DNA of 64,000 nt from an uncultured Gammaproteobacteria bacterium. Its GTDB lineage: Bacteria; Pseudomonadota; Gammaproteobacteria; CAVZZX01. The translations under genes and the position numbers were made by a program. Each line of letters opens with the position of its first letter. The first letter of the stretch is position 1. Below are positions 8,150 through 30,730 of the stretch, piece after piece. The DNA lies in NCBI GenBank assembly GCA_963779865.1, contig CAVZZX010000003.1, positions 2,252,274 to 2,316,273 of the forward strand, in the 5' to 3' direction. The notes under the pieces are model-generated. The model was given only the letters and a program-made list of their open reading frames with translations, ran no database searches and was not told the origin of the DNA.

Positions 8150-9151
8150 ATGAACCGCGCAGAACGCATCTACCGGCTCCATTCCCTGCTGCGGCCGGGC
8201 CGTCCGGTCCCGCTGAGTCGGATAATGGACCAACTCGGGGCCTCGCGCGCCACGGTGAAACGCGACATCGCCTACCTGCGCGACTTCATGGACGCCCCCA
8301 TCCATTACGATCGCGAGCGCAACGGCTACCGCTACGCCCCCGACGCGCCGGAGTTCGAGCTGCCGGGGCTGTGGTTCAATCAGAGCGAGCTCTATGCCCT
8401 GCTCGCCAGCGAACAGCTTCTCGAGGGGGTTCAGCCCGGCCTGCTCGGGCCGTATATCGGGCCGCTCAAGGCGCGCATCCGGCGGCTGCTCGCCGAGAGT
8501 GGGCATGCCGCCGACACCGTGAGCACGCGGGTCATCCTGCAGCCCTTCGCGCAGCGCCACGTCGACCAGGGCCTGTTCGGCCGTGTCTCCGAGGCGGTGA
8601 TGGCTCGGCAGGTCCTCGATATCGAGTACGAGGGCCGCGAGCGCGGGGCGCTCACCCGGCGCCGCATCCATCCCTATCGCCTCCTGCACTACCGCGACAA
8701 CTGGTATGTGGTCGGCTGGTGTGAACGGGCCGGCGACCTGCGCACCTTTTCGCTGGATCGTCTCCGCCACGCCGAATTGGTCGAGGGCGCCGCCACGCCC
8801 GCCGACGCAGCCGCCCTGACCCGCTATCTCGGTGCGAGCTTCGGCATTTTCACCGGCGAGGCCGGTGCCTGGGCCGTGCTGCGCTTCACCGCCCAGCGCG
8901 CCCGCTGGGTCGCCGACGAGCAGTGGCACCCCGACCAAATCGGCCAGTGGGTGGACGGCGCCTACGATCTCCAGGTCCCGTATTCCGATCCGCGCGAACT
9001 GTTACTCGACATCCTCAAGTACGGCCCCGATGTCGAAGTCCTCGCCCCCACCGAGCTCCGTGAGCTGGTGGCCGGGCGGATTCGGGAGGCCGCGGCACGC
9101 TACGAGCGCGAACAGTCCGCAGAAATTGACGCCGGGTGGCTCAATCTGTGA
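8150..9151 (+). CDS. YafY-family transcriptional regulator with HTH, WYL and WCX domains
   Basis: The protein begins MNRAERIYRLHSLLRPGRPVPLSRIMDQLGASRATVKRDIAYLRD with an N-terminal HTH. The central region contains the WYL motif (YRDNWYVVGWC), followed by a C-terminal extension. The six-frame ORF 6863..9151 is the same frame extended antisense across ubiD. Confidence 0.85.
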   Translation: MNRAERIYRLHSLLRPGRPVPLSRIMDQLGASRATVKRDIAYLRDFMDAPIHYDRERNGYRYAPDAPEFELPGLWFNQSELYALLASEQLLEGVQPGLLGPYIGPLKARIRRLLAESGHAADTVSTRVILQPFAQRHVDQGLFGRVSEAVMARQVLDIEYEGRERGALTRRRIHPYRLLHYRDNWYVVGWCERAGDLRTFSLDRLRHAELVEGAATPADAAALTRYLGASFGIFTGEAGAWAVLRFTAQRARWVADEQWHPDQIGQWVDGAYDLQVPYSDPRELLLDILKYGPDVEVLAPTELRELVAGRIREAAARYEREQSAEIDAGWLNL

Positions 9152-9178
9152 GCCAGTGCCTGTGATACAAATTCGTCC

Positions 9179-9752
9179 ATGCGGCCAAAGGAAACCATCT
9201 TGCCCCGCAAGGCGCCACAACCCGTATTCCAGCTGATGGTCACGCTTCAGCACCGCCAGCCGACCATCTGGCGGCGGATTCACGTGCCAGCCGATATCCG
9301 CCTGGGCGAGCTGCACGAGGTCTTGCAAGTGGTCATGGGCTGGGAAGACGCGCACTTGCATGCCTTCCGGAACGGCGGCACCGAGTGCGGCGAACCGGAC
9401 CCACAGTTCCCGGGCGGCATGCGCACCGAGCGCAACGATCCGCTGGGGCAGGTCGCGAGCGTCGGCGACACCTTCTGGTACGAGTACGACTTCGGCGACG
9501 GCTGGCTCCACGCCATCCGTGTGGAGCAGACGCTGCCCGGCGACACGCCTCACCCCCGCTGCGTCGGCGGAGAGCGCGCCGCCCCGCCCGAGGACTGCGG
9601 CGGCCCGCCCGGCTACGCCAGCGCTGCTGGAGACCATCGCCGATCCGCGGCATCCGGACCGCAAGGAGATGCTGGAATGGATAGGCGAGGAGTTCGACCC
9701 CGAGGCCTTCGACATCGAGGCGGTGAATCAGAAGTTGGAGGGAGTCGGGTAA
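9179..9752 (+). pseudogene. pRiA4b ORF-3-like family protein (PF07929-like), with a frameshift at about 9610-9625
   Basis: The N-terminal part WRRIHVPADIRLGELHEVLQVVMGWEDAHLHAF...EDCGGPPGY is in frame 2. The family's C-terminus LLETIADPRHPDRKEMLEWIGEEFDPEAFDIEAVN continues in frame 0. The implied 1-nt indel falls in a gcccgcccggc run. Confidence 0.55.
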
Positions 9753-9780
9753 GGATGCACCACTCGGGACAAACAGACCG

Positions 9781-10291
9781 ATGAAACTGGCGAGCTTCGA
9801 GGCGATTGCGCGCGCTTTGCAAAATGCCGGCGTCCGCTATCTGGTGGCAGGAGGTCTGGCGGTCAATGCGCATGGATTCCTCCGCTTCACGAAAGATGTG
9901 GATCTCGTCATGGATCTCGCCCCCGAGAACGTCCGGCGCGCGTTCGATGCATTGGCGAGCCTGGGCTACCGTCCGCGTGTACCGATCACCGCGGACGAGT
10001 TCGCCGACGCCGATATGCGCCAAACCTGGATACGGGAGAAGGGGATGCAAGTCCTCCAGCTTTGGAGCGACGAACTATCGGGAGACACCCATCGACATCT
10101 TCGTCGCGGAGCCGTTCCCCTTCGATCAAGAACACCAAAGATCGCTAATCAAGCCTCTGTATGGGACCGTCGAGGTGCGATTTGTATCGATACCCACCCT
10201 GATTCAAATGAAAGAGGCCGCCGGACGCGAACAAGACCGGATCGATATCGAGCATCTCCGCATGAGGCTGGACAAGAATGGAACCGATTGA
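9781..10291 (+). pseudogene. nucleotidyltransferase-fold protein (MNT/AbiEii-like), with a frameshift at about 10070
   Basis: The sequence LVAGGLAVNAHGFLRFTKDVDLVMD matches the NTase G[GS]...D.D motif. The N-terminal half is in the frame of the 9781 ORF. The C-terminal half (ETPIDIFVAEPFPFDQEHQ...IQMKEAAGREQDRIDIEHL) is in the frame of the 9806 ORF. Confidence 0.5.
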
Positions 10292-10535
10292 GAATTCGTC
10301 TGCGGATATCGACTGGAGCCTTACCACCTGGGAAGGCTCCCGCCAGGAACAGATGCGACGCTGGGCGGAATTGCCTTTGGAGCGGATTGTCGCGGCGTTA
10401 GAGGAAATGGAGGAATTGGCGGCCGCGCTTGGCGGTTGTGCGGGCGCAGCGCATGCGGTGCCTGTCGGACGATGGATTACGTTCGTCGCCGGGCCTGCGC
10501 GGGGGCAGGACGTTAGGAGCGCAGTGCATTACTAA
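10278..10535 (+). CDS. hypothetical small protein overlapping the nucleotidyltransferase 3' end (possible partner or remnant)
   Basis: This is an 85-codon ORF, MEPIENSSADIDWSLTTWEGSRQEQMRRWAELPLERIVAALEEMEEL. No recognisable motif was found, and its coding status is uncertain. Confidence 0.2.
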   Translation: MEPIENSSADIDWSLTTWEGSRQEQMRRWAELPLERIVAALEEMEELAAALGGCAGAAHAVPVGRWITFVAGPARGQDVRSAVHY

Positions 10536-10908
10536 CAGCACAACAAAACCGAGCCCAACCACGAAAGTAATTGGTGAATACATTTTCCACGGCGCGTGTT
10601 GCTCGAATGAGGAGAATCAATAGCCGGAGCCACATGGTGGGCCGACTCCCTCGTGAGGATGACTTGTTGGAAATGGTAGACCATGGGCTTCAGGACTGTT
10701 GTTTGGTGGTGAGCGAAGTGGCCGTCCATAATTCCCTACAGGGGTCCCCAGAAGTTCCCCTCCCCATCGAAGCAGGACCGCTGTCTTGCAAGTTGTTGTC
10801 TGAAGAGCAATCTCCGCGGCCCACGTGCCGCGGCCTCATTGAAAAGCGCAAGCATTCGGACCACGTGCCCGAATAGGAAGAACCACATCTGCAACCCAAG
10901 GAGTCGTC

Positions 10909-12234
10909 ATGGCCGGTTCACTTAATCTCGATACTCTGTCCGCCGCGGTCAGCGGCTCCGCTGCCGCATTTCGGTGTCGTCGCAGGCTTCAGCCCGCCGG
11001 CGGTGAGGGCGACAAGGTCTTTCCGCCTACGTTCGCCGGCGCGGTCTACGCCGTAGAACAGCGACGGCTCCCCGGGCACGAAGAGCCGGTTACCTGCGTG
11101 CTGCTCGACAGTGTCCAGAGCCAGGCCAACCGCATGGAGCTGGCCTTGCAGCAGGCCTTCGACGCTGGGCGGTTCCGGATGCCGCTGGTGGAGGTGGACT
11201 TCTCTGAGCGCGACCCGACCGGTGACGTCGAAGCCGATCTCGAAGCGGGCCGCCTCATCGATGCGGTGGGCAGGCTTACAAGTCTGCAGGTGCCGCATCG
11301 CCTGGCCGACGCCATCCTGCGCGACAGCGAACTCGACGGAACGCCCTTTCGTCAGTCCGAGATCGGCAAGGCGCTCAATACCGTCAATCTCGCCAACGCC
11401 ACCCCACTCTTCGAACTCTGTCCCACTGCGCTTCTGTTCGGCATGTGGGATTCCACCGGTCCAAAAGGAGGGCTGGGGCCGAAGTTTGAACGGGCGATGG
11501 TTTCGGAGATCACGGGTGTCGGAGTAGATTTCGGGGTCAAGACCCAAAGCCGTGTCGATCCACTCATCGCTAAGACCACCGGAATTACTTTGTACGAGAA
11601 GAAAGGTGGTGGATGGACTCTGAATGAGGGAGAGGCGCTCAAGAAGGATGGGAAACCGGTCAAGCTTGGAAAAGATGGAAAGGCCTCTGAGGCCAACCTC
11701 GGGAATGTCACTCCAGCTTTCCACAAGTACGCAAAAGGCGCTGAAGGGGTAGACCCATTGACAGGCGAACAAGCCCGTGAAGGGAAGATCGCTCCGGGTG
11801 GCGTCACCATCGAGCATGCCGCACAGGTCACCACGCTTTCGCTAATCGCGCTGCGCCGGCTGCACTTCCCGCTCGATGGGGTGACGAACCGCGAAGTGGA
11901 TGAAGCTGCCCGTACGGTCCTCGCCGCGCTGGGCCTCTGCAGCGCCACTCTAGCCTTCGAGACGGGCGTGGGTCTGCGTTCCCGCAGCCTGCTGTGGCCG
12001 GACGGGCCGATGACATGGGAACTGCTCGAACGCCCAGGCGCGCAACCGCGAGCGTTCGAGCTGACCGGCGAGCAGGCGGTGGCCCTGCTGGAGGATGCGA
12101 TCGACATGGCTCGGCGCGCCGGGCTGAACTGGCGCGAGGAGCCCATTGGGCTCAAGCCCTCCAGTCAGTTACTTGAGCTGGTGCGCCGCAGCCAGAACCT
12201 GGCGCGTCACGAAGGTGCAGAGGGGGGGGCATAG
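10909..12234 (+). CDS. csb1: type I-G (I-U) Cas7, Csb1 family
   Basis: The N-terminal block KVFPPTFAGAVYAVEQRR...VLLDSVQSQANRMELAL is typical of Csb1/GSU0053 proteins as I recall them. A glycine-rich loop is present (GMWDSTGPKGGLGPKF). An AAGGAG ribosome-binding site precedes the ATG. Confidence 0.75.
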   Translation: MAGSLNLDTLSAAVSGSAAAFRCRRRLQPAGGEGDKVFPPTFAGAVYAVEQRRLPGHEEPVTCVLLDSVQSQANRMELALQQAFDAGRFRMPLVEVDFSERDPTGDVEADLEAGRLIDAVGRLTSLQVPHRLADAILRDSELDGTPFRQSEIGKALNTVNLANATPLFELCPTALLFGMWDSTGPKGGLGPKFERAMVSEITGVGVDFGVKTQSRVDPLIAKTTGITLYEKKGGGWTLNEGEALKKDGKPVKLGKDGKASEANLGNVTPAFHKYAKGAEGVDPLTGEQAREGKIAPGGVTIEHAAQVTTLSLIALRRLHFPLDGVTNREVDEAARTVLAALGLCSATLAFETGVGLRSRSLLWPDGPMTWELLERPGAQPRAFELTGEQAVALLEDAIDMARRAGLNWREEPIGLKPSSQLLELVRRSQNLARHEGAEGGA

Positions 12235-12238
12235 CGCC

Positions 12239-13804
12239 GTGTTGGCCTTCGGTATTCGCTACCTGAACGGCTTCGCCGCAGCCGCCGAGCCCGACGACCG
12301 AGGTTGCGCGGAATGGCCGCCGCACCCAGGCCGGGTGTTCATGGCAATGGCTGCCGCGCACTTTCAGACCGGGGCCGAGCCCGCCGAACGGGCGGCCCTC
12401 CTCTGGCTGGAAGGTTCGGGACGCGGCGACGAGGTCGACGCACCGCACCTGGCGGCGCCGGAGGGAACGCTGCGAGCGGTAGTCACGCATTATGTGCCGG
12501 TCAACGACAAGGCGGGACCGTCCAAGGCCGTGCTGCATTCGCTGCCGCTGACTCGCGAGCGCCAGGAGCGTACCTTCGCCCGTGCCTGGCTCGACAGCGA
12601 TACGGTTTATCTCATTTGGCCCGAGTTGAATCCGCCTCCGGAACACCGCCGCGCTTTGGAGGCCTTGTGCGCCAAGGTCACCCGCGTAGGCCACTCCAGC
12701 TCCCTGGTGCAGATGTGGCTGGCGGACAGCGCGGAGACTTACGAGCCGAACTGGGTGCCGGACGACACGCGAGGGACCATCCGCTTGCGCATTGCCGGTC
12801 CGGGGACCCTGGAACACCTCGAACAGGAGTACAACGCGATGGCGATGGAGGATTACGCCACCCTCAGGGTCGAGGCGGAAACGGCGCCGACGCCGAAGGA
12901 GAGGACGGCAGCGAGGCGGCGGCTCAAGCGGGACTACGACAACAATCCTCCACGGCAACAGCGGCCGATCTTGTCGCTCTATCAAGGTTACGCGGCGGCC
13001 ACGACCCTGGCGAAAAACCCAGGCGTGCCCGGGACGATCTACAGCCCGCATTTCATCGCGCTCAAGCTGGTCCCCGAGCAGGGCCCGTATCGCGAACTCG
13101 ATCTCGCCGCCACGCATGCCATCGTATTGCGCTGGCGCGAGGCGATCCTCAGTCACAGCAATGGGGAACCAGACCGGGTACGCAGCATCCTGAGCGGCCA
13201 CGATCGCGAGGGTGCACCGCTCAAGGAACCGCACCTGGCCTTCCTCCCGCTGCCCTTCGTCGACCACGAGCACGCCGACGGCCATCTGCTCGGCATAGGC
13301 CTCGTCTTGCCGGCGACGATCGAGCGGGACGAGCGGCGCGCCATCCTGCGCGTGCTCGGCCAAGTCCAGCGCCTCAAGCTTGGGCGCCTCGGGCTATGGA
13401 AGCTCGTCCCGGTCACCGAATCCCGCCCACCCTGGAACCTGCGGCCGGAAACCTGGACGGCCTACACGGACGGCGCCACCCACTGGACGTCAGTGACCCC
13501 TGTTGCCCTCGACCGCCACCCGAAGGCAAAAGGCGAGGCGGCCTACCGGCAAGAGCTGGCCCGCATGATTTCCCAAAGTTGCGAGCGCATCGGTCTCCCC
13601 CCACCGCGCGATGTGATACCCACCTTCGTGTCGACCCACCTCGGCGCGCCCCCAGCCCACGCTTTTCCAAAGCTCATGCGCAAGGACGGCAGCGAACGGC
13701 GTCACACCCACGCCATTCTGATATTCGACGAACCGGTGTGCGGGCCGCTGCTGATTGGGGCGGGGCGGTTCCGCGGGTACGGAGCGTTCCGACCGCAACT
13801 CTGA
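12239..13804 (+). CDS. csb2: type I-G Cas5-Cas6 fusion, Csb2 family
   Basis: The N-terminus VLAFGIRYLNGF...EWPPHPGRVFMAMAAA resembles the Csb2 signature that I recall as EWPPSP.RLF. The GTG start lies 5 nt after the csb1 stop and is preceded by an AGGGGGG ribosome-binding site. Confidence 0.75.
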   Translation: MLAFGIRYLNGFAAAAEPDDRGCAEWPPHPGRVFMAMAAAHFQTGAEPAERAALLWLEGSGRGDEVDAPHLAAPEGTLRAVVTHYVPVNDKAGPSKAVLHSLPLTRERQERTFARAWLDSDTVYLIWPELNPPPEHRRALEALCAKVTRVGHSSSLVQMWLADSAETYEPNWVPDDTRGTIRLRIAGPGTLEHLEQEYNAMAMEDYATLRVEAETAPTPKERTAARRRLKRDYDNNPPRQQRPILSLYQGYAAATTLAKNPGVPGTIYSPHFIALKLVPEQGPYRELDLAATHAIVLRWREAILSHSNGEPDRVRSILSGHDREGAPLKEPHLAFLPLPFVDHEHADGHLLGIGLVLPATIERDERRAILRVLGQVQRLKLGRLGLWKLVPVTESRPPWNLRPETWTAYTDGATHWTSVTPVALDRHPKAKGEAAYRQELARMISQSCERIGLPPPRDVIPTFVSTHLGAPPAHAFPKLMRKDGSERRHTHAILIFDEPVCGPLLIGAGRFRGYGAFRPQL

Positions 13805-13857
13805 GGAGAATCAGGCATGCGTGAACGGGAGCTTAGCCTTAAGAATGGGGTGATCGA

Positions 13858-16800
13858 GTGGAGACTGCCCGCAATGACGGGTTCGAGAAGATAACCAGAG
13901 GATGGGGACAGGAGATGATTCCATTGCCTGATTTCTCTTTGTGGTTCCATGCACTCTGGGGCCACTCTCCGTTTCCCTGGCAGCGCATACTCGCCGAGCG
14001 ATTGGTCAAGGGCGAGTGGCCCAAGGCTCTGGACCTGCCTACCGCCGCGGGCAAGACAGCCTGCATCGATGTCGCCGTCTATGCGCTGGCGACCCAGGCG
14101 GAGAAGCCAGTGTGGGAGCGGACGGCACCACGGCGCATCTGGTTCGTGGTGGATCGGCGCATCGTAGTCGATGAGGCGTTTGCGCGCGCGGAGCAGATCG
14201 CGCAGAAGCTTGCGACGGCGACGGATGGTCCTCTCAGGGCTGTTGCCGAGCGGCTATTGCGGGTGAGCGGAACGACCCGACCGCTGGCCACGGCAAGACT
14301 GCGCGGCGGTGTGTTGCGCGACGACGGGTGGGCGCGGCTACCTTCGCAGCCAGCGGTGATCACCTCCACGGTGGATCAGCTCGGCGCCCGCCTGCTATTC
14401 CGCGGTTATGGCCACAGCCCGAACACCGCCTCCATCTTTGCAGGCTTGGCGGCGCACGATAGTCTGATTTTGTTGGATGAAGCCCACCTATCAGTGCCGT
14501 TCATGCAGACGCTGCGGGCGGTAGAGCGCTATCGGGGGCCGGAGTGGGCTGAAGAGCCGATCCGAACGCCATTCGCCTTTGCCCTGCTGTCGGCGACACC
14601 TCCGTCCGATAGTGTCCCCACCGAGGTGTTTCCTGGTATTCGGCGCGCCGAAGCCCTGAATCACCCGGCCTTGCGGCAGCGCATACAGGCGCGAAAGCCG
14701 GCCGACCTGGTCGAGGTCACGGGGAGAAAATCGGACCCTTCCGATCCACTGGTCGCGGAAGCCGTTGCGCGTGCCAGGATGTTCACTATTAAGGGACGGC
14801 GGCGCGTCGCCGTGGTCGTCAATCGGGTGGGCACAGCGCAGGCAATCGCTCACGGCCTTCGCGAGGCAATCGGCGGCGATATGGACGTCGTGCTCCTCAC
14901 CGGAAGGCTGCGGCCCCTGGAACGCGACACCCTGGTGGAGCGCTGGCGGCCTTTGCTGCGGGCTAATGCACCAGCGGAACCGGAGCGCCCGATTGTGTTG
15001 GTCGCGACCCAGTGTATCGAAGTTGGAGCGGACTTCAGCTTCGACGCGTTGGTGAGCGAGGCGGCGAGCCTGGATGCGCTGCGCCAGCGCTTTGGCCGGC
15101 TGAATCGGCTAGGCATGGAAGAGACCGCACTGGCGGCGATCCTGATCCGTGCCGCGGATGCTAAAGACGATTCCGACGATCCGGTATACGGCACAGCCAT
15201 GTCTGCCTGCTGGCGGCTACTGAGCGAATTGGCAGAGGCGGATGGAGTCGGCAAGCGGGGAGGCAAGCGCATCGATTTCGGCATCGCCGCCTTGGACAGC
15301 CTCTTGGAACCGCTCAACGATTTCAGCCCCTATTTGGCACCAGTCACGGTTGCTCCGCTGCTCTTGCCTGCGCACCTTGACCTACTGTGCCAGACCGCGC
15401 CGCCGCCTCCGATAGAACCCGCCATCTCACTGTACCTCCATGGCGTCGACCGCGGACAGCCGGAAGTCCGAGTTGTCTGGCGCGCAGATCTGAGTACCGC
15501 GAGTGCCGGGGACTGGGCAGAAATCGTCGCCCTCTGCCCACCCAACAGCATGGAGTCGTTGTCGGTACCACTTACCCGCCTCCGCGGCTGGCTGGCGAAC
15601 CACGGCGCCGGTCAAGAAACGGCGGATGTGGAAGGCGGGAGCTGGGAGGCGCCTCCGATGGCGCCGCAAGAATTCCGGCCGGTTCTCGCGTGGCGGGGAC
15701 GCGAGCGCTCGCGGGTCGTTATGCAAGCTTCCGAGTTGCGGCCGGATGATCTGGTCGTGCTGCCGACTGGATATGGAATTGAAGGGCTCGGCCAGAGCGT
15801 CCCCACGACGGCCCTAGGCGGGCATCAGCTTGACATCTGGGAGCCGAGTCATAGGCAGAGCGGAAAACCGGCCACGCTGCGATTGCACCGCGAAGTGTTG
15901 CAACCGTGGCGGGACTGCCCACCGCTCGCCGAACTTATCGCTTTGGCCGAGGATCCGGATTGGGAGAGCGAAGCACTACAGGTTGCCATCGATGCCGTAC
16001 TCGATTACGTACCAGGCACGGATGAGGATCCGCCACCGCCACCGCCACCGCAGTGGCTGACGGATATGCTCCGGCAGGCTCGCAGCGGAAGGGTAGAGAA
16101 GCACCCTGCAAACGGCCTGATATTGTTTGCGCCCTCCGACAGGAATCAGAACGGTGAGGAGCAAGACCTGTTCGCCGACGACGACGACCTGCTCTCTGCC
16201 ACCGGCCGCGAGGTCAGTCTCGGTGTTCACAGTGCGTCAGTGGAACGGGCGGTCGGGCAATTAGCCCAGCGCTGCCTGCCCGAGCCCTTTTTCGCACCGC
16301 TGCGAGCGGCGGCCTACTGGCATGATGTCGGCAAGCTGGACGAGCGCTTCCAGATGTGGCTGCGCGAGGGCAACGAACTCGAGGTGCTCGCCGGCGAACC
16401 CTTGGCCAAGTCGAGGGGCATCGCCACTTCCCCGGAGCGACGCCGCCGGCTGCGCGAGGCGAGCGGCCTGCCCGAGCGCTTCCGGCACGAGATGCTTTCG
16501 ATGCAACTGGCCGAACGATATGGCCCTGCGCCTCACGGTGAGGGGACGGACGTCCTTGTCCTGCACGCCATCGCCAGCCATCACGGCTATGCGCGACCGT
16601 TTGCACCGCCGAGTCCCGACCCGCTTCCACCGCCGGTCCGCGGGCGGCATGCCGGCGCGGAGATCGACATCGACATTACAACCCGCGCGGGATGGCCGGT
16701 ACCGGCATCGATAGCCGCCGGCATGGCGGAACGGTTTTGGCGTCTTACACGACGTCACGGTTGGTGGGGGCTAGCCTACCTCGAGGCGATTCTCCGTTTG

Positions 16801-18048
16801 GGAGACTGGTACGGCAGCCAGCGAATCGTGGAGGAAGCACCCGTGGAGGGTTCAGCACCTGCGAAAGGTCCCGTCCGTGCGAAGCGCCCAACGTTACCGG
16901 GGACAGAGGTCCCACTCACCGGAGTCGATGGCGCGAACCCGTTGGGTTTTCTGTGCGCGCTCGGTACGATGGTGGTGTTGCACGAGGCGGGGCACGGCGA
17001 TGCGCGACTCTTATGGCGGCGCGAGGGATTGACATGGCGCCCCCTGCTGACGGGCCTGCCCACCGGGGATAGATCGGCTTTGGCACAAACCATCGCTGAT
17101 GGTTTACGCGGTTCGATCGTTTCCGCCGAAACCGAGGCGGCACGCAAGGACGCACAAATGCGCTTGGGCGAGGTGGAGAAGAAGGTCAAAGAGGCGCAAA
17201 AGGATATCAAGCTGCGAAGATTGCGAGGCAAGGAGCGCCAGCAGGCGTACGCCGCGGAGATTTCGCCGCTAGAAGCCGAACGTAAGCTGCTGCAGCAGGA
17301 TTTTCTGCGGGCACTGCGCCAAGCCGTTCCCCGCCCTGAACTCGCGCTAGGCAAGAACATCGACGCCACAGCCGCTGAGTATCGAGCCCTCACCGAGCCG
17401 CATGTCAGCAATGCCCGCTATAACGATCGCGAGTGCCTGGACTTGCTTGCTGCTTTCGCCAGCGATGGCTGTCTGCATCGCAGTCCGACCAAGCGCAAAG
17501 AAGGGAAGCTGGCGCCCACGCCTTTTTCCTTCATATCCGGTTCGGGCCACCAGGACTTCCTCGAGACCGTACGAGGGCTTCTTCAGCGGGTGACGCCGGA
17601 ACTTGTCAGCTCCACCTTGTTTTCGCCATGGCGGTACGATGAAGAAGGGCTGTCCATGCGCTGGGACCCGGTCGAAGATAGACGCTACGCCTTGATGGAC
17701 CGCGACCCCACGGCGAGCGACAACAAGCCTCGCACAGTCTGGATGGCTAACCTGCTGGCGTACCGGGCGCTCGCATTGTTTCCCTCCGCGCCGGGGCGCA
17801 GACGCCTGCTCACCACCGGCTGGGCCCGCGATGCCACTGGGGAATCCTTTGTCTGGCCACTTTGGATACACCCGGCCGATCGGGACACCATCCGTTCGCT
17901 GCTGCTGCTGCCGGAGCTATATTCGCCTGCGCCGGATCGACAGGTCTTGCGCACAAGAGGCGTGGAAGCAGTCTTCCGTGCACGCCGCATAAAAGTCGGA
18001 AGCGGTGCGAACTTCAAGATCAATTTCAGTGCAGCTCGCGAGGTCTAG
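13858..18048 (+). CDS. cas3: Cas3 helicase-HD nuclease with a roughly 470-aa C-terminal extension; putative Cas3-Cas8u (Csx17-like) fusion
   Basis: The N-terminus FHALWGHSPFPWQ...LPTAAGKTACID provides Walker A and LILLDEAH provides the DEAH box. An HD domain (YWHDVGKLDERFQ...IASHHGYARP) lies at about residues 815-920. The C-terminal extension then opens with GVDGANPLGFLCALGTMVVL, which resembles the Csx17 N-terminal PLGSYLKALGVLRLV block. The ORF is uninterrupted. Confidence 0.8.
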   Translation: METARNDGFEKITRGWGQEMIPLPDFSLWFHALWGHSPFPWQRILAERLVKGEWPKALDLPTAAGKTACIDVAVYALATQAEKPVWERTAPRRIWFVVDRRIVVDEAFARAEQIAQKLATATDGPLRAVAERLLRVSGTTRPLATARLRGGVLRDDGWARLPSQPAVITSTVDQLGARLLFRGYGHSPNTASIFAGLAAHDSLILLDEAHLSVPFMQTLRAVERYRGPEWAEEPIRTPFAFALLSATPPSDSVPTEVFPGIRRAEALNHPALRQRIQARKPADLVEVTGRKSDPSDPLVAEAVARARMFTIKGRRRVAVVVNRVGTAQAIAHGLREAIGGDMDVVLLTGRLRPLERDTLVERWRPLLRANAPAEPERPIVLVATQCIEVGADFSFDALVSEAASLDALRQRFGRLNRLGMEETALAAILIRAADAKDDSDDPVYGTAMSACWRLLSELAEADGVGKRGGKRIDFGIAALDSLLEPLNDFSPYLAPVTVAPLLLPAHLDLLCQTAPPPPIEPAISLYLHGVDRGQPEVRVVWRADLSTASAGDWAEIVALCPPNSMESLSVPLTRLRGWLANHGAGQETADVEGGSWEAPPMAPQEFRPVLAWRGRERSRVVMQASELRPDDLVVLPTGYGIEGLGQSVPTTALGGHQLDIWEPSHRQSGKPATLRLHREVLQPWRDCPPLAELIALAEDPDWESEALQVAIDAVLDYVPGTDEDPPPPPPPQWLTDMLRQARSGRVEKHPANGLILFAPSDRNQNGEEQDLFADDDDLLSATGREVSLGVHSASVERAVGQLAQRCLPEPFFAPLRAAAYWHDVGKLDERFQMWLREGNELEVLAGEPLAKSRGIATSPERRRRLREASGLPERFRHEMLSMQLAERYGPAPHGEGTDVLVLHAIASHHGYARPFAPPSPDPLPPPVRGRHAGAEIDIDITTRAGWPVPASIAAGMAERFWRLTRRHGWWGLAYLEAILRLGDWYGSQRIVEEAPVEGSAPAKGPVRAKRPTLPGTEVPLTGVDGANPLGFLCALGTMVVLHEAGHGDARLLWRREGLTWRPLLTGLPTGDRSALAQTIADGLRGSIVSAETEAARKDAQMRLGEVEKKVKEAQKDIKLRRLRGKERQQAYAAEISPLEAERKLLQQDFLRALRQAVPRPELALGKNIDATAAEYRALTEPHVSNARYNDRECLDLLAAFASDGCLHRSPTKRKEGKLAPTPFSFISGSGHQDFLETVRGLLQRVTPELVSSTLFSPWRYDEEGLSMRWDPVEDRRYALMDRDPTASDNKPRTVWMANLLAYRALALFPSAPGRRRLLTTGWARDATGESFVWPLWIHPADRDTIRSLLLLPELYSPAPDRQVLRTRGVEAVFRARRIKVGSGANFKINFSAAREV

Positions 18049-18260
18049 CATTGCCGGTGGCTTGCAGGTGCTACGCGAATGTGGCGGCACGTATAGATAG
18101 GCGTTTGGCGCCTGAGCTCGGCCGTGTTGATCTAACAGCAGTACGCCGAGACAGGTTTATCGGGCACGCATTCTCGGCTCTTTAACAACTTGGAACCTTC
18201 TATTCCGCGGCTCTCCGGAGCCGCGGCCTCATTGCCGTCGGCACGCCCTAGCGACCGCTT

Positions 18261-18382
18261 CAGTCCATCCCCAACAGCACGCGCACCGAGCGCTCAATGG
18301 CGGCCATTTCGTCGGGCTCCAGGCAGGTCAGCGGCCCCTCGCCGAAGCGGGTGTGGTCCAGCGCGCGTATCCGATCGGTCAT
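18261..18382 (-). other. 41-codon ORF in the cas3 / cas4-cas1 intergenic gap; possible gene remnant
   Basis: The translation is MTDRIRALDHTRFGEGPLTCLEPDEMAAIERSVRVLLGMD*. No family was recognised. It sits in a 770-bp gap that is otherwise non-coding. Confidence 0.15.
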
Positions 18383-18821
18383 AACGTGGGAGTCCTTGCG
18401 CAGCCGAGCCTCGTGCGGCCGGGCGTACGCGCAGGGGCGCGATGGATTTTTGTAGTAGCGTGATCAGAGGTGCCACCAGCACACAGTGGGTACGCCCTGT
18501 GCGGTAATGTAGTCGCCTTGCCGCATCACCACCGGGTGGACTTTTCCGATCCCCGCGGCGGTATTCCGATTGAGCCACCAGCCGGGCTTCGCCGCGGCGC
18601 GTCAATCCCACCACTTCTCTTCCGGTCCGCCAACCTGCTCGGCGATGCATAGAGTGCACCGATCACTTGCGACGAACTCTTCCGCGTGGCACCCATGCGA
18701 CAAGCCGTAACGTATGACGGATTCAGAGTCTTACTTGCCGAGGGGCAAGCGGGCAACGCACGCCGCTAAATCCCCAGGCGCCGTGCACCAGAGGATTCAT
18801 TGGACGGTCGGGGGGACCTGT

Positions 18822-20528
18822 ATGGAGGACCAGCACCAGGGCGAACTGCCCTTACCCTTTCCGGAGCTTTCCGGCGATATGCCGTTGCTCCCGGCGCGCA
18901 TGCTCAACGAGTTCGCCTACTGTCCACGGCTGGCCTACCTGGAGTGGGTACAGGGGGAATGGGCGGATTCAGGGGACACGGTCGAGGGGCGGCATGTGCA
19001 CCGCCGGGTCGACCAGCCGTCCAAGGGCATGCCTTCTGCGGAGGACGCCACGGAGCGCTTCCATGCCCGGTCGATCACACTGTCCTCGAACCGGCTGGGG
19101 CTGATCGCGAAGATGGACCTTATCGAAGGCGACGGCGAGCGGGTCACGCCCGTGGACTACAAGCGGGGCAAACGCCCGCACGTCCCGAAGGGCGCCTACG
19201 AGCCCGAACGTGTGCAACTCTGCGTGCAGGGGCTGATCCTCCAGGAGCACGGCTACACCTGCGCCGAGGGTGTGCTCTACTTCGCCGCCTCGAAGGAGCG
19301 GGTGCGGGTGGTTTTCGACGAGGAGTTGCGGGAGCAGACGCTGGCGGCGGTCAACGGCCTGCGCTTCATCGCCGCCGGCGGGCAGATGCCGCCGCCGCTG
19401 GAAGACAGCCCGAAATGTCCGCGCTGCTCGCTGGTGGGGATCTGCCTGCCGGACGAGGTGAACTATTTCCGCAAGGGTCAGGACAGTCCCCGACCGCTCG
19501 CGGTCGGCCGCGAGGAGGCGATGCCGGTCTACGTGCAGGCCAATCGCGCCAAGGTCACCAAGAAGGGCGAGTTGCTCGAGGTCAGCATCGAAGACAAGCC
19601 CGTTACCACCGCCCGTTTAGCGGAGGTCTCGCAGCTCGCGCTGATGGGCAACGTCTATCTGACCACGCCCTGCCTGCACGAGCTCATGCGCCGCGATATC
19701 CCGGTGAGCTGGCATTCCTTCGGCGGCTGGTTCCTGGGGCACACCGTGGGCACCGGACACAAGAACGTCGAGCTGCGTACCGCGCAGTATCGGGCGAGCT
19801 TCGATCAGCGTGCCTGCCTGCATTTGGCCAAGGGGCTGGTGCAGACCAAGATCCTCAACAGCCGCACACTGCTTCGGCGCAACTGGCGCGGCGAGGACGA
19901 TCCGAAGGCGCTGCTTCAGGACATGCAGCGCGATGCCAGACAGGCGGCCCGTGCGGAGAGCCTCTCCGAGCTGCTTGGCATCGAAGGCGCGGCGGCGGCT
20001 CGCTATTTCGGCCGATTCGACCGACTAATAAAGAAGAACGCGGACACCGAAAGCTTCAGCTTCGACTTCAATCGACGCAACCGGCGCCCGCCGACCGATC
20101 CAGTCAACGCCCTGTTGTCCTACGCCTATACCATTCTGGTGCGGAGCTGGACCGTCGCCCTCTCCGCCGTGGGCTTCGATCCCTATCGCGGCTTTTACCA
20201 CCAGCCACGGTATGGGCGACCGGCACTGGCGCTGGATATGATGGAGCCGTTTCGCCCCTTGATCGCCGAATCGGCGGTGTTGTCCGCCATCAACAATGGC
20301 GAGGTCCGCCCTAGTGACTTCATCGCGGCCGCGGGCAGCGTGGCTCTGACCCCGGACGGCCGCAAGCGGTTCATTGCGGTTGTCGAACGCAGACTCAGTC
20401 AGGAAATCACGCATCCGCTGTTCGGATACAAGGCCAGCTATCGGCGTATTCTCGAGATACAGGCTCGGTTGCTCGGGCGGTATCTACTGGGGGATATACA
20501 GGACTTCCCGGGCTTTACGACGAGGTGA
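18822..20528 (+). CDS. cas4-cas1: Cas4-Cas1 fusion protein
   Basis: The N-terminal Cas4 part has an N-terminal Cys (CPRLAYLEW), a RecB-nuclease DxnExK block (DLIEGDGERVTPVDYKRGK) and a C-terminal CPRCSLVGIC Fe-S motif. The Cas1 part follows (YLTTPCLHELMRRDIPVSWHSFGGWF...). A GGGGGGA ribosome-binding site precedes the ATG at 18822. The six-frame ORF starts at 18714. Confidence 0.9.
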   Translation: MEDQHQGELPLPFPELSGDMPLLPARMLNEFAYCPRLAYLEWVQGEWADSGDTVEGRHVHRRVDQPSKGMPSAEDATERFHARSITLSSNRLGLIAKMDLIEGDGERVTPVDYKRGKRPHVPKGAYEPERVQLCVQGLILQEHGYTCAEGVLYFAASKERVRVVFDEELREQTLAAVNGLRFIAAGGQMPPPLEDSPKCPRCSLVGICLPDEVNYFRKGQDSPRPLAVGREEAMPVYVQANRAKVTKKGELLEVSIEDKPVTTARLAEVSQLALMGNVYLTTPCLHELMRRDIPVSWHSFGGWFLGHTVGTGHKNVELRTAQYRASFDQRACLHLAKGLVQTKILNSRTLLRRNWRGEDDPKALLQDMQRDARQAARAESLSELLGIEGAAAARYFGRFDRLIKKNADTESFSFDFNRRNRRPPTDPVNALLSYAYTILVRSWTVALSAVGFDPYRGFYHQPRYGRPALALDMMEPFRPLIAESAVLSAINNGEVRPSDFIAAAGSVALTPDGRKRFIAVVERRLSQEITHPLFGYKASYRRILEIQARLLGRYLLGDIQDFPGFTTR

Positions 20529-20531
20529 ATC

Positions 20532-20825
20532 GTGGACGAGCACCTGTACGTGGTCACCTACGACATCGCAGACCAGAAGCGCTGGAGGGCGGTCTTCAAG
20601 TTGATGCACGGCTACGGGGAATGGCTGCAGCTTTCCGTGTTTCAGTGCCGACTCAGCCGCAAGCGCCATGCCGAACTGCTCGCCACGCTTGACCAGATCA
20701 TCCATCACGACGAGGATCACATACTGATGCTGGACGTCGGCGCCGCCGAGAACGTCCGGCCAAGAGTCGTCAGTCTCGGAAAGGCAGGCTTCGAGCCCGT
20801 GGACCGCAAGCCGATAATCGTGTGA
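20532..20825 (+). CDS. cas2: Cas2
   Basis: The protein begins VDEHLYVVTYDIADQKRWRAVFKLMHGYGEWLQLSVFQC. It has a GTG start 4 nt after the cas4-cas1 stop. Confidence 0.9.
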   Translation: MDEHLYVVTYDIADQKRWRAVFKLMHGYGEWLQLSVFQCRLSRKRHAELLATLDQIIHHDEDHILMLDVGAAENVRPRVVSLGKAGFEPVDRKPIIV

Positions 20826-21029
20826 TTTTCGCCTTCGGCCTGCGAGCGCTCCGCTGCTGCCGCAATCCCGGGGAGCGCTCGCAGCACCGCAAGTGATTGG
20901 CGAAGCGGAAATTAATCCTCAAAGTGTTGCCCAAAACCTGGCGAAGGGAGGGAATGTGATGGCCTCGCAAGCACAGCGCTCGAAAAGGATGCCTCAAACG
21001 CGCCCCGCCACTGGTCTCCCGTGGAAGCG
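20826..21029 (+). promoter_or_regulatory. CRISPR leader
   Basis: A 204-bp non-coding stretch lies between cas2 and the first repeat and contains an AT-richer segment (gaaattaatcctcaaagtgttgcccaaaacc). The degenerate terminal repeat is at the distal end of the array, which is consistent with this orientation. Confidence 0.5.
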
Positions 21030-23123
21030 GTTATCCGCGGCATAACGCCGCGGCCTCATTGAAGCTTGACGATCTCGTTGCCCAGCTCGTAGAGGCTCTT
21101 GGTTATCCGCGGCATAACGCCGCGGCCTCATTGAAGCTCCGCCGGCAAGCTCGACGCCGAGGCCCTGCCGCTGGGTTATCCGCGGCATAACGCCGCGGCC
21201 TCATTGAAGCGTGATCTCGTTGTCGCGGGCCTGCCGGGTCAGCTGCGTTATCCGCGGCATAACGCCGCGGCCTCATTGAAGCGCATCGCTACTGGCGCGG
21301 CAATTGCCAAGGTCGCCGGCGGTTATCCGCGGCATAACGCCGCGGCCTCATTGAAGCGACGCGAAGCTCGCCGAACAGTGCGCAGCGCCAGCGTTATCCG
21401 CGGCATAACGCCGCGGCCTCATTGAAGCTCATCCTGCTCGGTGTGCTTCGCGGAATGTGCATCCATGTTATCCGCGGCATAACGCCGCGGCCTCATTGAA
21501 GCACCGAGGCTGCACGCACGACGACTGGCGCAGCCTGTGCGTTATCCGCGGCATAACGCCGCGGCCTCATTGAAGCCAACGGGTACACGACTGTCTGCAC
21601 TGAGCCTGTCAGTGTTATCCGCGGCATAACGCCGCGGCCTCATTGAAGCCGGACATTCAGCCGACCGCCGCAAGCCGATGTAGCGCGCGTTATCCGCGGC
21701 ATAACGCCGCGGCCTCATTGAAGCCATGTAGTTCGTCACGATCGGACGCTAATATTCTCACGCGTTATCCGCGGCATAACGCCGCGGCCTCATTGAAGCT
21801 TGTCGTGGTACGCACTCAGGTATTCCCTGGCTGTGGTTATCCGCGGCATAACGCCGCGGCCTCATTGAAGCCGAACCGGCGATCGGCTGGTACCCGGACC
21901 GCTTCTCGGTTATCCGCGGCATAACGCCGCGGCCTCATTGAAGCATGATCGTCCAGGTAATCGCGTCGTCGGAGATCGCCAGTTATCCGCGGCATAACGC
22001 CGCGGCCTCATTGAAGCTTCCGCTACTGGGACGATCCGTGCCAGCCGACGCAAGCGTTATCCGCGGCATAACGCCGCGGCCTCATTGAAGCCAGCAGCGT
22101 GTCAAGCGGCTTTGCGTCGATGGCGATGTTATCCGCGGCATAACGCCGCGGCCTCATTGAAGCGACGGTAGCTATCTCGACTACCACGACGCTCGCGGAC
22201 GTTATCCGCGGCATAACGCCGCGGCCTCATTGAAGCCGCATGCGGCATCGAGGAAGTCGTCGAACAGCGTTCCGGTTATCCGCGGCATAACGCCGCGGCC
22301 TCATTGAAGCGTCGGTACAATGACCGAGTCGCCTAACTAGTAGCGCTCATGTTATCCGCGGCATAACGCCGCGGCCTCATTGAAGCGACGCCTCCGGCGC
22401 CGAGACTTTGCTCGATCAAGGGTTATCCGCGGCATAACGCCGCGGCCTCATTGAAGCGCACGAGATACGCGGTCCTCGACTGTCCCGACGCGGACGTTAT
22501 CCGCGGCATAACGCCGCGGCCTCATTGAAGCGAGCTCCGGATCCGCTCGCACTCGCGCGTCGCGCGACTGTGGTTATCCGCGGCATAACGCCGCGGCCTC
22601 ATTGAAGCACTCCCTTGGCGATTGATCAGGCGCATGTCGCTACGTCACCAGGTTATCCGCGGCATAACGCCGCGGCCTCATTGAAGCATCGCCGAGCGCT
22701 TGAGCAGCGCCACCCTGCCCTTGGTTATCCGCGGCATAACGCCGCGGCCTCATTGAAGCTCCCATTTCACGTAAGCGGGGACATCACCCGTGTACGTGTT
22801 ATCCGCGGCATAACGCCGCGGCCTCATTGAAGCTTGTGTTGTCACTTCTCTGCCTTTCTTTTCGGCCGGCGTTATCCGCGGCATAACGCCGCGGCCTCAT
22901 TGAAGCATGAGCACCAGCGCATCGCCGGAGGCGGCATCCGCGTTATCCGCGGCATAACGCCGCGGCCTCATTGAAGCGCCAGCTATCGTAGCTACCTTGC
23001 GGGCAATGCGGCCGTTATCCGCGGCATAACGCCGCGGCCTCATTGAAGCACCCCGGAGCAGGACGGGCTGCACCAGAACTGGATACGTTATCCGCGGCAT
23101 ATTCGCCGCGGCCTCATTGAGGC
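21030..23123 (+). CRISPR. CRISPR array of 29 repeats of 36 bp (GTTATCCGCGGCATAACGCCGCGGCCTCATTGAAGC) and 28 spacers of 35-39 bp; the terminal repeat is degenerate
   Basis: Repeat starts were read at 21030, 21102, 21175, 21247, 21322, 21394, 21467, 21541, 21614, 21689, 21764, 21836, 21909, 21982, 22056, 22128, 22201, 22275, 22351, 22422, 22496, 22573, 22652, 22724, 22798, 22871, 22942, 23014 and 23087. The last repeat reads gttatccgcggcatattcgccgcggcctcattgaggc. Each repeat contains the palindrome CCGCGGC-ATAAC-GCCGCGG. The ATTGAAGC tail resembles I-C/I-G repeats. Confidence 0.97.
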
Positions 23124-23349: not shown

Positions 23350-30544
<7,195 letters not shown>

Positions 30545-30730
30545 AGCGGGCTTCCCTAAGGTTTTTAAATGGGGTCGGCCTCGCGAATCTACGGGAGGCC
30601 GGCGCGGAAGAAAAGCCGAATGCACTGAAAACACGAGGGATCTGCCCGGAAATACGGGCGCGTCCGGAGCTGCATCAGGGTTATCCCTTAGGGGTTTTCC
30701 CGGGGACGTGCAGGGACACGGCCGCGGCCC

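Follow-up and report, generated by a model that had tools for sequence, protein, structure and literature searches.

A 64,000-nucleotide stretch of contig CAVZZX010000003.1, from an uncultured gammaproteobacterium, was analyzed for its CRISPR-Cas content (short palindromic repeats, clustered and regularly interspaced, with their associated genes); the whole stretch is referred to below as the window. Positions 8150-23123 very probably represent a complete, apparently functional type I-G system, belonging to the variant in which cas7g (csb1) is followed by csb2, cas3 and a short cas8g, with a proposed autoregulation of the CreR type. The core of the system, composed of csb1, csb2, cas3 with an extension, a cas4-cas1 fusion, cas2, a leader and a repeat array, all on the plus strand, occupies positions 10909-23123. 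The cas3 extension is predicted to be the large subunit of the effector, fused in frame to Cas3, and a degenerate mini-CRISPR is found just upstream of csb1.

Five long, closely spaced open reading frames (ORFs) are listed on the plus strand between 10909 and 20825, and their products were typed by three libraries of hidden Markov models (HMMs): NCBIfam, with its curated cut-offs, Pfam and PADLOC. The first gene, csb1 or cas7g (10909-12234), encodes the 441-residue backbone subunit, recognized by NCBIfam TIGR02570 (63.7 bits; cut-off 38), Pfam Cas_GSU0053 (PF09617; E = 1.4e-54, 185 bits) and PADLOC Cas7g (E = 1.1e-51). It is followed by csb2 (12239-13804), for a Cas5-Cas6 fusion, the predicted endonuclease for the precursor of the CRISPR RNA (pre-crRNA): the longest ORF opens at 12146, translation probably starts from the GTG at 12239, and the resulting 521-residue product matches TIGR02165 with 282 bits, from position 2 to 491 of the 492 of the profile, and PADLOC Cas56g (E = 1.1e-116). 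A single ORF of 1396 codons, 13858-18048, whose start could instead be the ATG at 13915, contains both cas3 and the extension. Its cas3g part (13858-16869) matches TIGR02621 with 696.5 bits (cut-off 400; profile positions 1-853 of 854). The helicase motifs fall within residues 63-420 (Walker A, AAGKT, at residue 63; DEAH at 207) and those of the HD nuclease within residues 821-907 (WHDVGK at 821; SHHG at 907), which places the HD domain C-terminal of the helicase.

For the cas4g-cas1g fusion, the longest ORF spans 18714-20528; the family profile begins at its residue 58, and the start is therefore likely to be the ATG at 18822 (18822-20528, 568 residues). The profile, NF049935, is matched end to end (positions 1-546 of 546) with 832 bits, against a cut-off of 560, and PADLOC Cas1g with E = 5.5e-193. 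Both the cysteines and the DYK motif of Cas4 are found, as are the conserved Cas1 motifs that were searched for, so that the adaptation module is intact, as held in the first-pass annotation. The last gene, cas2 (20532-20825, 97 residues), is recognized by NCBIfam TIGR01573, Pfam CRISPR_Cas2 and PADLOC Cas2g (E = 8.1e-28). Every cas product is typed as I-G by the three libraries, and the PADLOC labels are Cas7g, Cas56g, Cas3g, Cas8g, Cas1g and Cas2g. No further ORF with a Cas profile is found between 10909 and 20825, and there is accordingly no separate cas11, cas5 or cas6; none of the locus proteins matches the NCBIfam profile of Csx17 (TIGR04113). The complete I-G (formerly I-U) gene set, with its strand and positions, had been proposed from the sequence beforehand and is borne out in all its elements.

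Between cas2 and the first repeat lies a leader of 204 nt (20826-21029, plus strand), the degenerate repeat being found at the far end of the array; a sigma-70 scan of the leader finds no consensus promoter, and a terminator scan is likewise uninformative. The array itself (21030-23123, plus strand) is composed of 29 repeats and 28 spacers. As already reported, 28 repeats are identical, 36-nt copies of GTTATCCGCGGCATAACGCCGCGGCCTCATTGAAGC, and only the terminal one is degenerate (23087-23123, 37 nt, with two changes in the loop and one at the 3' end); the spacers, described as uniform, are all unique and range from 35 to 43 nt. Each of the identical repeats matches the Rfam family CRISPR-DR16 with 39.2 bits, above the gathering score, and the terminal copy with 30.6 bits. 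The matches are on the plus strand, which fixes the direction of transcription and places the degenerate repeat at the distal end. The repeat sequence fits a 7-bp stem, followed by CCTC and by ATTGAAGC. By analogy with the I-G system of Thioalkalivibrio sulfidiphilus, the array would be transcribed from the leader and cut by Csb2 4 nt 3' of the CCGCGGC/GCCGCGG hairpin, leaving ATTGAAGC as an 8-nt 5' handle, with Csb2 remaining on the 3' hairpin.

Three repeat-like elements lie outside the array, and had previously been overlooked. Two of them occupy 10811-10847 and 18202-18238; the third, at 10737-10773, is more degenerate. The 15-nt core of the repeat, GCCGCGGCCTCATTG, occurs in 31 exact copies in the window, where 0.86 would be expected by chance with up to two mismatches; two of the exact copies, at 10827 and 18220, are external to the array. 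Upstream of csb1, two degenerate repeats and a spacer-like sequence form a mini-CRISPR, in the order PsiR1-PsiS-PsiR2 (10737-10847), separated by 61 nt from the csb1 ATG.

PsiR1 (10737-10773, plus strand) was identified by a scanner for handle plus stem, with a score of 20.2, of which 16.2 is due to the handle. Its canonical stem is lost, and a 5-bp stem is followed by 4 nt and by the 8-nt handle ATCGAAGC; in the folded RNA, the hairpin is in register for a predicted Csb2 cut 4 nt 3' of the stem. Its start precedes that of PsiR2 by exactly 74 nt, the length of one array period. PsiS (10774-10810, plus strand), AGGACCGCTGTCTTGCAAGTTGTTGTCTGAAGAGCAA, is a 37-nt sequence located between the two degenerate repeats at the normal array spacing. 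PsiR2 (10811-10847, plus strand) contains one of the exact cores: its 7-bp stem is perfect and the same as in the array repeat, its loop differs, and its 3' handle is disrupted by 2 inserted nt. A covariance model, R1, built from 32 repeats of related loci, whose stems co-vary between loci, matches it at 10810-10847 with 33.6 bits (E = 4.8e-7); the CRISPR-DR16 match, 25.4 bits, is sub-threshold. The decay of the two repeats is selective: what a mature guide needs, the handle from PsiR1 and the hairpin from PsiR2, has been retained.

PsiS was compared with each of the 3272 TTN-flanked sites in the window, every sixth position being left out of the score. The best site is located at 10692, only 45 nt upstream of PsiR1: a TTC protospacer-adjacent motif (PAM, 10689-10691) is followed by a 17-nt partial protospacer (10692-10708, plus strand), and the whole, 10689-10708, is the predicted binding site of the mini-array RNA. 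Of the 15 scored positions, 11 match (1-5, 7, 9-11, 13 and 15). A match as good or better, within the 507-nt intergenic region, was obtained by 31 of 5000 shuffled spacers and by 84 of 5000 random 37-mers (p of about 0.006-0.017). For the sequence following PsiR2, no convincing TTN-flanked match is found. A putative promoter, read by eye on the plus strand (10703-10733), is composed of TTGGTG (10703-10708), a 19-nt spacer and CATAAT (10728-10733); it overlaps the target site and would start transcription at PsiR1. Downstream of the target there is no Rfam family and no small toxin-like element: the mini-array and csb1 are found there instead.

These features suggest a control circuit. The mini-array would be processed to a crRNA-like RNA of about 72 nt (about 10766-10837), starting with AUCGAAGC, able to guide the effector to the TTC site by limited PAM-proximal pairing; as the target overlaps the likely promoter of both the mini-array and the cas operon, the predicted outcome is negative autoregulation of the CreR type, without DNA cleavage. 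Processing, promoter position and repression are inferred here from the sequence. A WYL regulator encoded upstream, described below, would probably provide a second layer of control.

Support for such a design comes from 160 related loci, designated below by L numbers: 80 genome loci, collected by using the alignment of the extension as a query, and 80 metagenome loci, collected by Csb1. A strict search for the repeat core of each locus outside its own array gave almost nothing, and a covariance search over all loci, swamped by array matches, was uninformative on solo elements: degenerate elements surfaced only with the handle-plus-stem scanner. The comparison made for PsiS was extended to all repeat-like matches outside the arrays of the 160 loci. 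In 13 distinct loci, or 15 when two near-duplicate contig pairs are counted separately, the sequence adjacent to a degenerate repeat matches a TTN-flanked site at 13-15 of the 15 positions (L013, L055, L058, L068, L083, L084, L094/95, L108, L134, L135, L145, L149, L150/151), whereas a score of 13 is attained by only 2 random spacers out of 150. Most of these targets are located upstream of csb1, at no more than 400 nt from it; L068 and L150/151 pair at all of the first 12 positions except 6 and 12. When the PAM filter is switched off, TT is found at positions -3 and -2 for 17 of about 30 non-array matches. L108 is co-directional, like the window: a TTT with a 16-nt match is followed by a perfect TTGACA, 17 nt, TAACCT, PsiR1, PsiS, PsiR2, a ribosome-binding site and csb1. 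A strong mini-array target and a fused Cas3 occur together in L108, L134, L135, L149 and L150/151. Two-repeat degenerate mini-arrays were also observed, at most 270 nt upstream of csb1, in L009 (3065-3175), L012 (3996-4101) and L086 (1080-1187); for these, no convincing TTN-flanked target is found within the locus sequence examined, and their targets may lie elsewhere, or use another PAM.

The third element, SRU2 (18202-18238, plus strand), is a solo repeat-like hairpin, located between cas3 and the cas4-cas1 gene. It was recognized by its exact core, by R1 (22.1 bits, E = 7e-4, 18205-18234), by a sub-threshold Rfam match (21.2 bits) and by its predicted folding (-20.5 kcal/mol). An intact stem and CCTCATTG are accompanied by a degenerate distal handle, and neither the upstream nor the downstream flanking sequence has a convincing TTN-flanked match. 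Only 22 nt separate it from the end of a toxin pseudogene, also described below, and it may be what is left of a mini-array by which the toxin was formerly controlled.

The elements at 10737-10847 and 18202-18238 could, alternatively, be non-functional debris of arrays or of recombination, and the PsiS match a coincidence, a possibility which falls only a little short of an even chance. Several observations weigh against a regulatory role. The pairing of PsiS is weak, with 11 matches out of 15 and a mismatch at position 8, and lies below that of typical CreR RNAs; a score of 11 is moreover common as the best of a locus, being reached by 31 of 150 random spacers, and it is only the position of the site that stands out. 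A strict sigma-70 scan finds no consensus promoter at the target site, a terminator scan gives nothing useful there either, and in the promoter proposed here the -35 box is poor and the spacer 19 nt long. No mini-array is detectable in L001 and L087, the closest relatives with conserved synteny, indicating that the element is not universal. SRU2, targetless and beside a decayed toxin gene, indicates that the region does accumulate relics, and the presence of true arrays upstream of csb1 in L078 and L079 makes decayed upstream arrays plausible. Debris, however, fits poorly with the selective decay of the two repeats, with the location of the best TTN-flanked match of 64 kb just 45 nt away, and with the recurrence of the same design in 13 other, distinct loci, where the pairing is far stronger and TTN is enriched, L108 having an identical geometry. 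On balance, the chance that the mini-array of the window is a working autoregulator is rated as even or slightly better.

As regards interference and adaptation, the identity of the repeats and the integrity of the genes are consistent with an active system, and recent activity had been suggested on similar grounds. Searches with the spacers, also proposed at that stage, were carried out: the whole array gives only chance-level matches (E >= 0.2) against 50,697 phage records, and only repeat-driven matches to other arrays against 72,556 plasmid records; three spacers searched in IMG/VR have zero exact matches, and no spacer targets the 64-kb window itself. As no protospacers were found, recent activity is unproven.

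The GC content of the CRISPR-Cas locus is 60-66% (10001-22000), against 68-71% in the flanks, a difference which fits horizontal acquisition; no transfer RNA gene is found in the window, and no integrase is seen nearby. A silent or decaying island, no longer conferring immunity, would fit the lower GC content of the locus, the pseudogene that it contains and the lack of spacer matches in the collections searched. Such a state is unlikely: the six cas ORFs are full length and feature their catalytic motifs, 28 of the 29 repeats are identical, all spacers are unique, and missing protospacers are the norm for environmental bacteria.

The identity of the cas3 extension was missed by the first-pass annotation, which listed it without recognizing a large subunit. 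The extension (16870-18048, plus strand) corresponds to Cas3 residues from about 1005 to 1396, about 390 residues, and no stop codon separates it from the Cas3 part. It matches NCBIfam NF049934, "type I-G CRISPR-associated protein, Cas3-extension family", with 230.7 bits, and the PADLOC profile PDLC01514, "Cas8g, CAS-I-U effector_LS", with E = 2.7e-76. An AlphaFold model, based on 26 homologues, has a mean predicted local distance difference test (pLDDT) of 75.7 and a predicted template-modelling score (pTM) of 0.78. When compared by Foldseek to the PDB, the model has a single significant match, the entry 8b2x, "Structure of the type I-G CRISPR effector" (E = 2.1e-4, probability 1.0). The matched chain, of 649 residues, is presumably Cas8g, which its length suits better than Cas7. 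Since the locus has otherwise no cas8 gene, profile and model together point to the extension as the missing large subunit.

The family of the extension includes 2067 clusters at 50% identity, with stand-alone and Cas3-fused forms. Most members are stand-alone proteins of about 380 residues, and 12 of the best 150 cluster representatives are fused; among the related loci, the in-frame fusion is found in 36 of 123, including the closest relatives L001, L002 and L004. In all related loci the gene is directly 3' of cas3. Many members of the family are only 300-325 residues long and match profile positions from about 150 to 383; in this short form the N-terminal beta-domain is missing, together with a portion of the long helical hairpin.

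That the extension is instead an accessory domain with no relation to the large subunit, the effector working without Cas8, is very improbable. Such a reading agrees with the NCBIfam name, which merely mentions a Cas3 extension, with the absence of any match to PDB chains by sequence search, and with the difference in length from the 8b2x chain. Also to be set against a large subunit are the figures of the fold match, with a template-modelling score of 0.44 and a root-mean-square deviation of 12.8 Å, and the nature of the matched chain, an AlphaFold-derived model docked into a map at about 8 Å. Yet the PADLOC large-subunit profile is matched strongly, the only significant fold match is a I-G effector, the gene always follows cas3 directly, and no alternative large-subunit gene is found at the locus, nor among six gene families searched in the 160 relatives.

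With the extension as large subunit, the remaining steps may be outlined by analogy with T. sulfidiphilus, where Cas3 stays bound to the effector through Cas8g (Shangguan et al. 2022, PMC9638904). Cas7g would polymerise along the spacer, and the large subunit would deliver Cas3 to TTN-flanked targets, bridging it, as inferred for this locus too, to the backbone. As the large subunit would be formed by the C-terminal 390 residues of Cas3, the helicase-nuclease would be a covalent part of the effector; as Cas8g holds Cas3 on the effector in T. sulfidiphilus, the fusion can be seen as a natural variation of that arrangement. Cas4-Cas1 and Cas2 would add new spacers.

The order of the genes had been described as non-canonical. 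It is unusual only in comparison to the textbook examples of Geobacter and Thioalkalivibrio, where the order is cas3-cas8g-cas7-csb2, in place of the cas7-csb2-cas3-large subunit found here. At least 100 of the 160 related loci feature the order csb1-csb2-cas3-extension, usually followed by cas4/1-cas2 and then by the array, and only about 8 have cas3 and the extension ahead of csb1; the claim is thus not supported, this order being the dominant one. The related loci are found in Acidobacteriota, Planctomycetota, Verrucomicrobiota, Nitrospira and Gammaproteobacteria, and even in Methanomassiliicoccaceae. The nearest Cas proteins, with 63-78% identity, are those of L001, from a metagenome-assembled genome of Chromatiales, followed by L002 (Wenzhouxiangella) and L004 (Ectothiorhodospira mobilis). 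No relative above 67% identity came out of either scan, of genomes or of metagenomes, an exact search for the Csb1 protein among public assemblies had no match, and the intergenic regions of the window do not align with those of the relatives. Assignment to a different subtype, for example I-C, the outcome named in the first-pass annotation as refuting its reading, is practically negligible as an alternative: generic Cas1, Cas3 and Cas4 profiles of other subtypes match too, but under cut-off or with far lower scores, the best matches of all genes are I-G-specific and above cut-off, and both fusions, Csb2 and Cas4g/Cas1g, belong to the signature of I-G. The locus is an intact, ordinary member of a widespread I-G variant, already covered by curated HMM libraries. 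In three related loci, extra ORFs of about 200-340 residues were observed between the large-subunit gene and cas4 (L038, 11248-12087; L063, 12015-13040; L117, 16952-18477), and may encode an uncharacterised accessory protein, similar to repeat-associated mysterious proteins (RAMPs). The one from L038, the only one compared, shares with Csb2 just a short W-S-TP-L-R-PK motif (E = 0.018), and has no Pfam match.

Three genes precede the mini-array on the plus strand. The first (8150-9151, from an ATG at 8150) encodes a WYL-type transcriptional regulator, composed of HTH_11, WYL and WCX domains (Pfam E = 1.2e-7, 2.5e-21 and 7.4e-16, respectively) and matching the PADLOC profile "WYL, CAS associated_signaling" (E = 7.6e-44). 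In 16 related loci at least, a homologue precedes csb1, with identities of 70% in L087 and 47% in L001, and the regulator therefore probably belongs to the system. Membership is uncertain for the two following genes: a PRiA4_ORF3-like gene (9179-9784; Pfam PRiA4_ORF3, E = 7.4e-47), which follows the WYL gene also in L087 and L097, and an NTP_transf_5-like gene (9781-10401), whose Pfam match is weak and below cut-off (E = 2.9e-4), and which recurs in L023, L045 and L091.

A gap of 670-770 nt separates cas3 from the cas4-cas1 gene; sigma-70 and terminator scans gave nothing useful there. Besides SRU2, it contains, on the minus strand, a pseudogene of a mazF/pemK toxin (18260-18601), which is interrupted by an in-frame stop (18464-18466) and lacks a clear start codon. 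When X is put in place of the stop, the Pfam profile PemK_toxin is matched over positions 7-108 of 109 (33.9 bits, E = 3.8e-8). A CcdB-like reading of the gap was considered, and set aside once the Pfam scan had pointed to PemK/MazF. Intact toxin-antitoxin genes occupy this position in relatives (CcdAB in L001, 11155-11778; PIN in L017; ParE-like in L076; HEPN in L021), and the gap is therefore a cargo hotspot within I-G loci.

Downstream of the array, two hybrid histidine kinases are encoded on the minus strand (23350-25311 and 25295-30634). The latter, of 1779 residues, contains eight HAMP units, encoded by a 276-nt tandem repeat (28226-30107; 6.8 copies, 94% identity), which is an unusually recent internal amplification.

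The cleavage rule of Csb2, the bridging of Cas3 by Cas8g and the TTN PAM were described for I-G by Shangguan et al. (2022, PMC9638904). The system of T. sulfidiphilus HL-EbGr7 and that of Geobacter sulfurreducens share with the locus Cas7g/Csb1, Csb2, a Cas3g with HD after the helicase, Cas4-Cas1, Cas2, the absence of cas11 and a 36-nt GC-rich hairpin repeat, with a predicted cut 4 nt past the stem and an 8-nt handle; a TTN PAM is backed indirectly for the locus by the mini-array targets of the related loci. Their large subunit, in contrast, is about 650 residues long and not fused to Cas3, against about 390 residues here, and the two have no detectable sequence similarity, the match being by profile and fold only. 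In comparison to the NF049934/PDLC01514 family, both profiles of which are strongly matched by the C-terminal part of the window Cas3, the locus features the fused form, most members being stand-alone.

Mini-CRISPRs encoding CreR RNAs repress cas promoters, with experiments available for I-B, I-E and V-A; for I-U, creA-like elements are limited to examples found manually (Liu et al. 2023, bioRxiv 10.1101/2023.03.10.532045). Regulatory mini-arrays have also been described for I-B, I-D, I-E and I-F1, with experimental support for I-F1 (Shmakov et al. 2023, PMC10120712). With CreR the present element shares two degenerate repeats around a spacer-like sequence beside the effector operon, the selective repeat decay, and a predicted pairing, partial and PAM-proximal, with a site that is flanked by a PAM and lies where the cas promoter is presumed; it differs in that the guided effector carries Cas3 covalently. 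CreTA modules similarly use a degenerate mini-array, guiding Cascade to repress a nearby promoter, but include a small toxin RNA gene, and none was identified here: the sole toxin-like gene, the mazF pseudogene, is of the protein type, lies 7.5 kb away and is not matched by PsiS, so that the element does not classify as CreTA.

As such, the locus adds little, being another intact I-G system; its most interesting content is the combination of mini-array and tethered Cas3. The protein family named by NCBI as a Cas3 extension is made explicit as a Cas8g-type large subunit, fused to Cas3 in 29% of the related loci, and the fusion fits and extends the finding that the effector of I-G systems includes Cas3 as a stable component. 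CreR-like mini-arrays with partial, TTN-flanked targets recur upstream of csb1 across the variant, for a subtype so far only mentioned in passing in the CreR literature. We tentatively propose, rating it at somewhat less than an even chance, that the mini-array directs an effector armed with covalently bound Cas3 to the promoter of its own operon, that the system represses itself without destroying itself because the licensing of Cas3 depends on how far the R-loop extends and not on recruitment, and that the mini-array is common to the family. If this is true, a nuclease-armed Cascade would act as a natural transcriptional repressor on matches of 11-17 nt, and the mini-array would be a family-wide feature of I-G, not yet surveyed systematically. 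With Cas3 fused to the effector, it becomes more pressing to ask how self-targeting guides can act without cleavage, a question also relevant to compact I-G tools for genome editing and CRISPR interference (CRISPRi).

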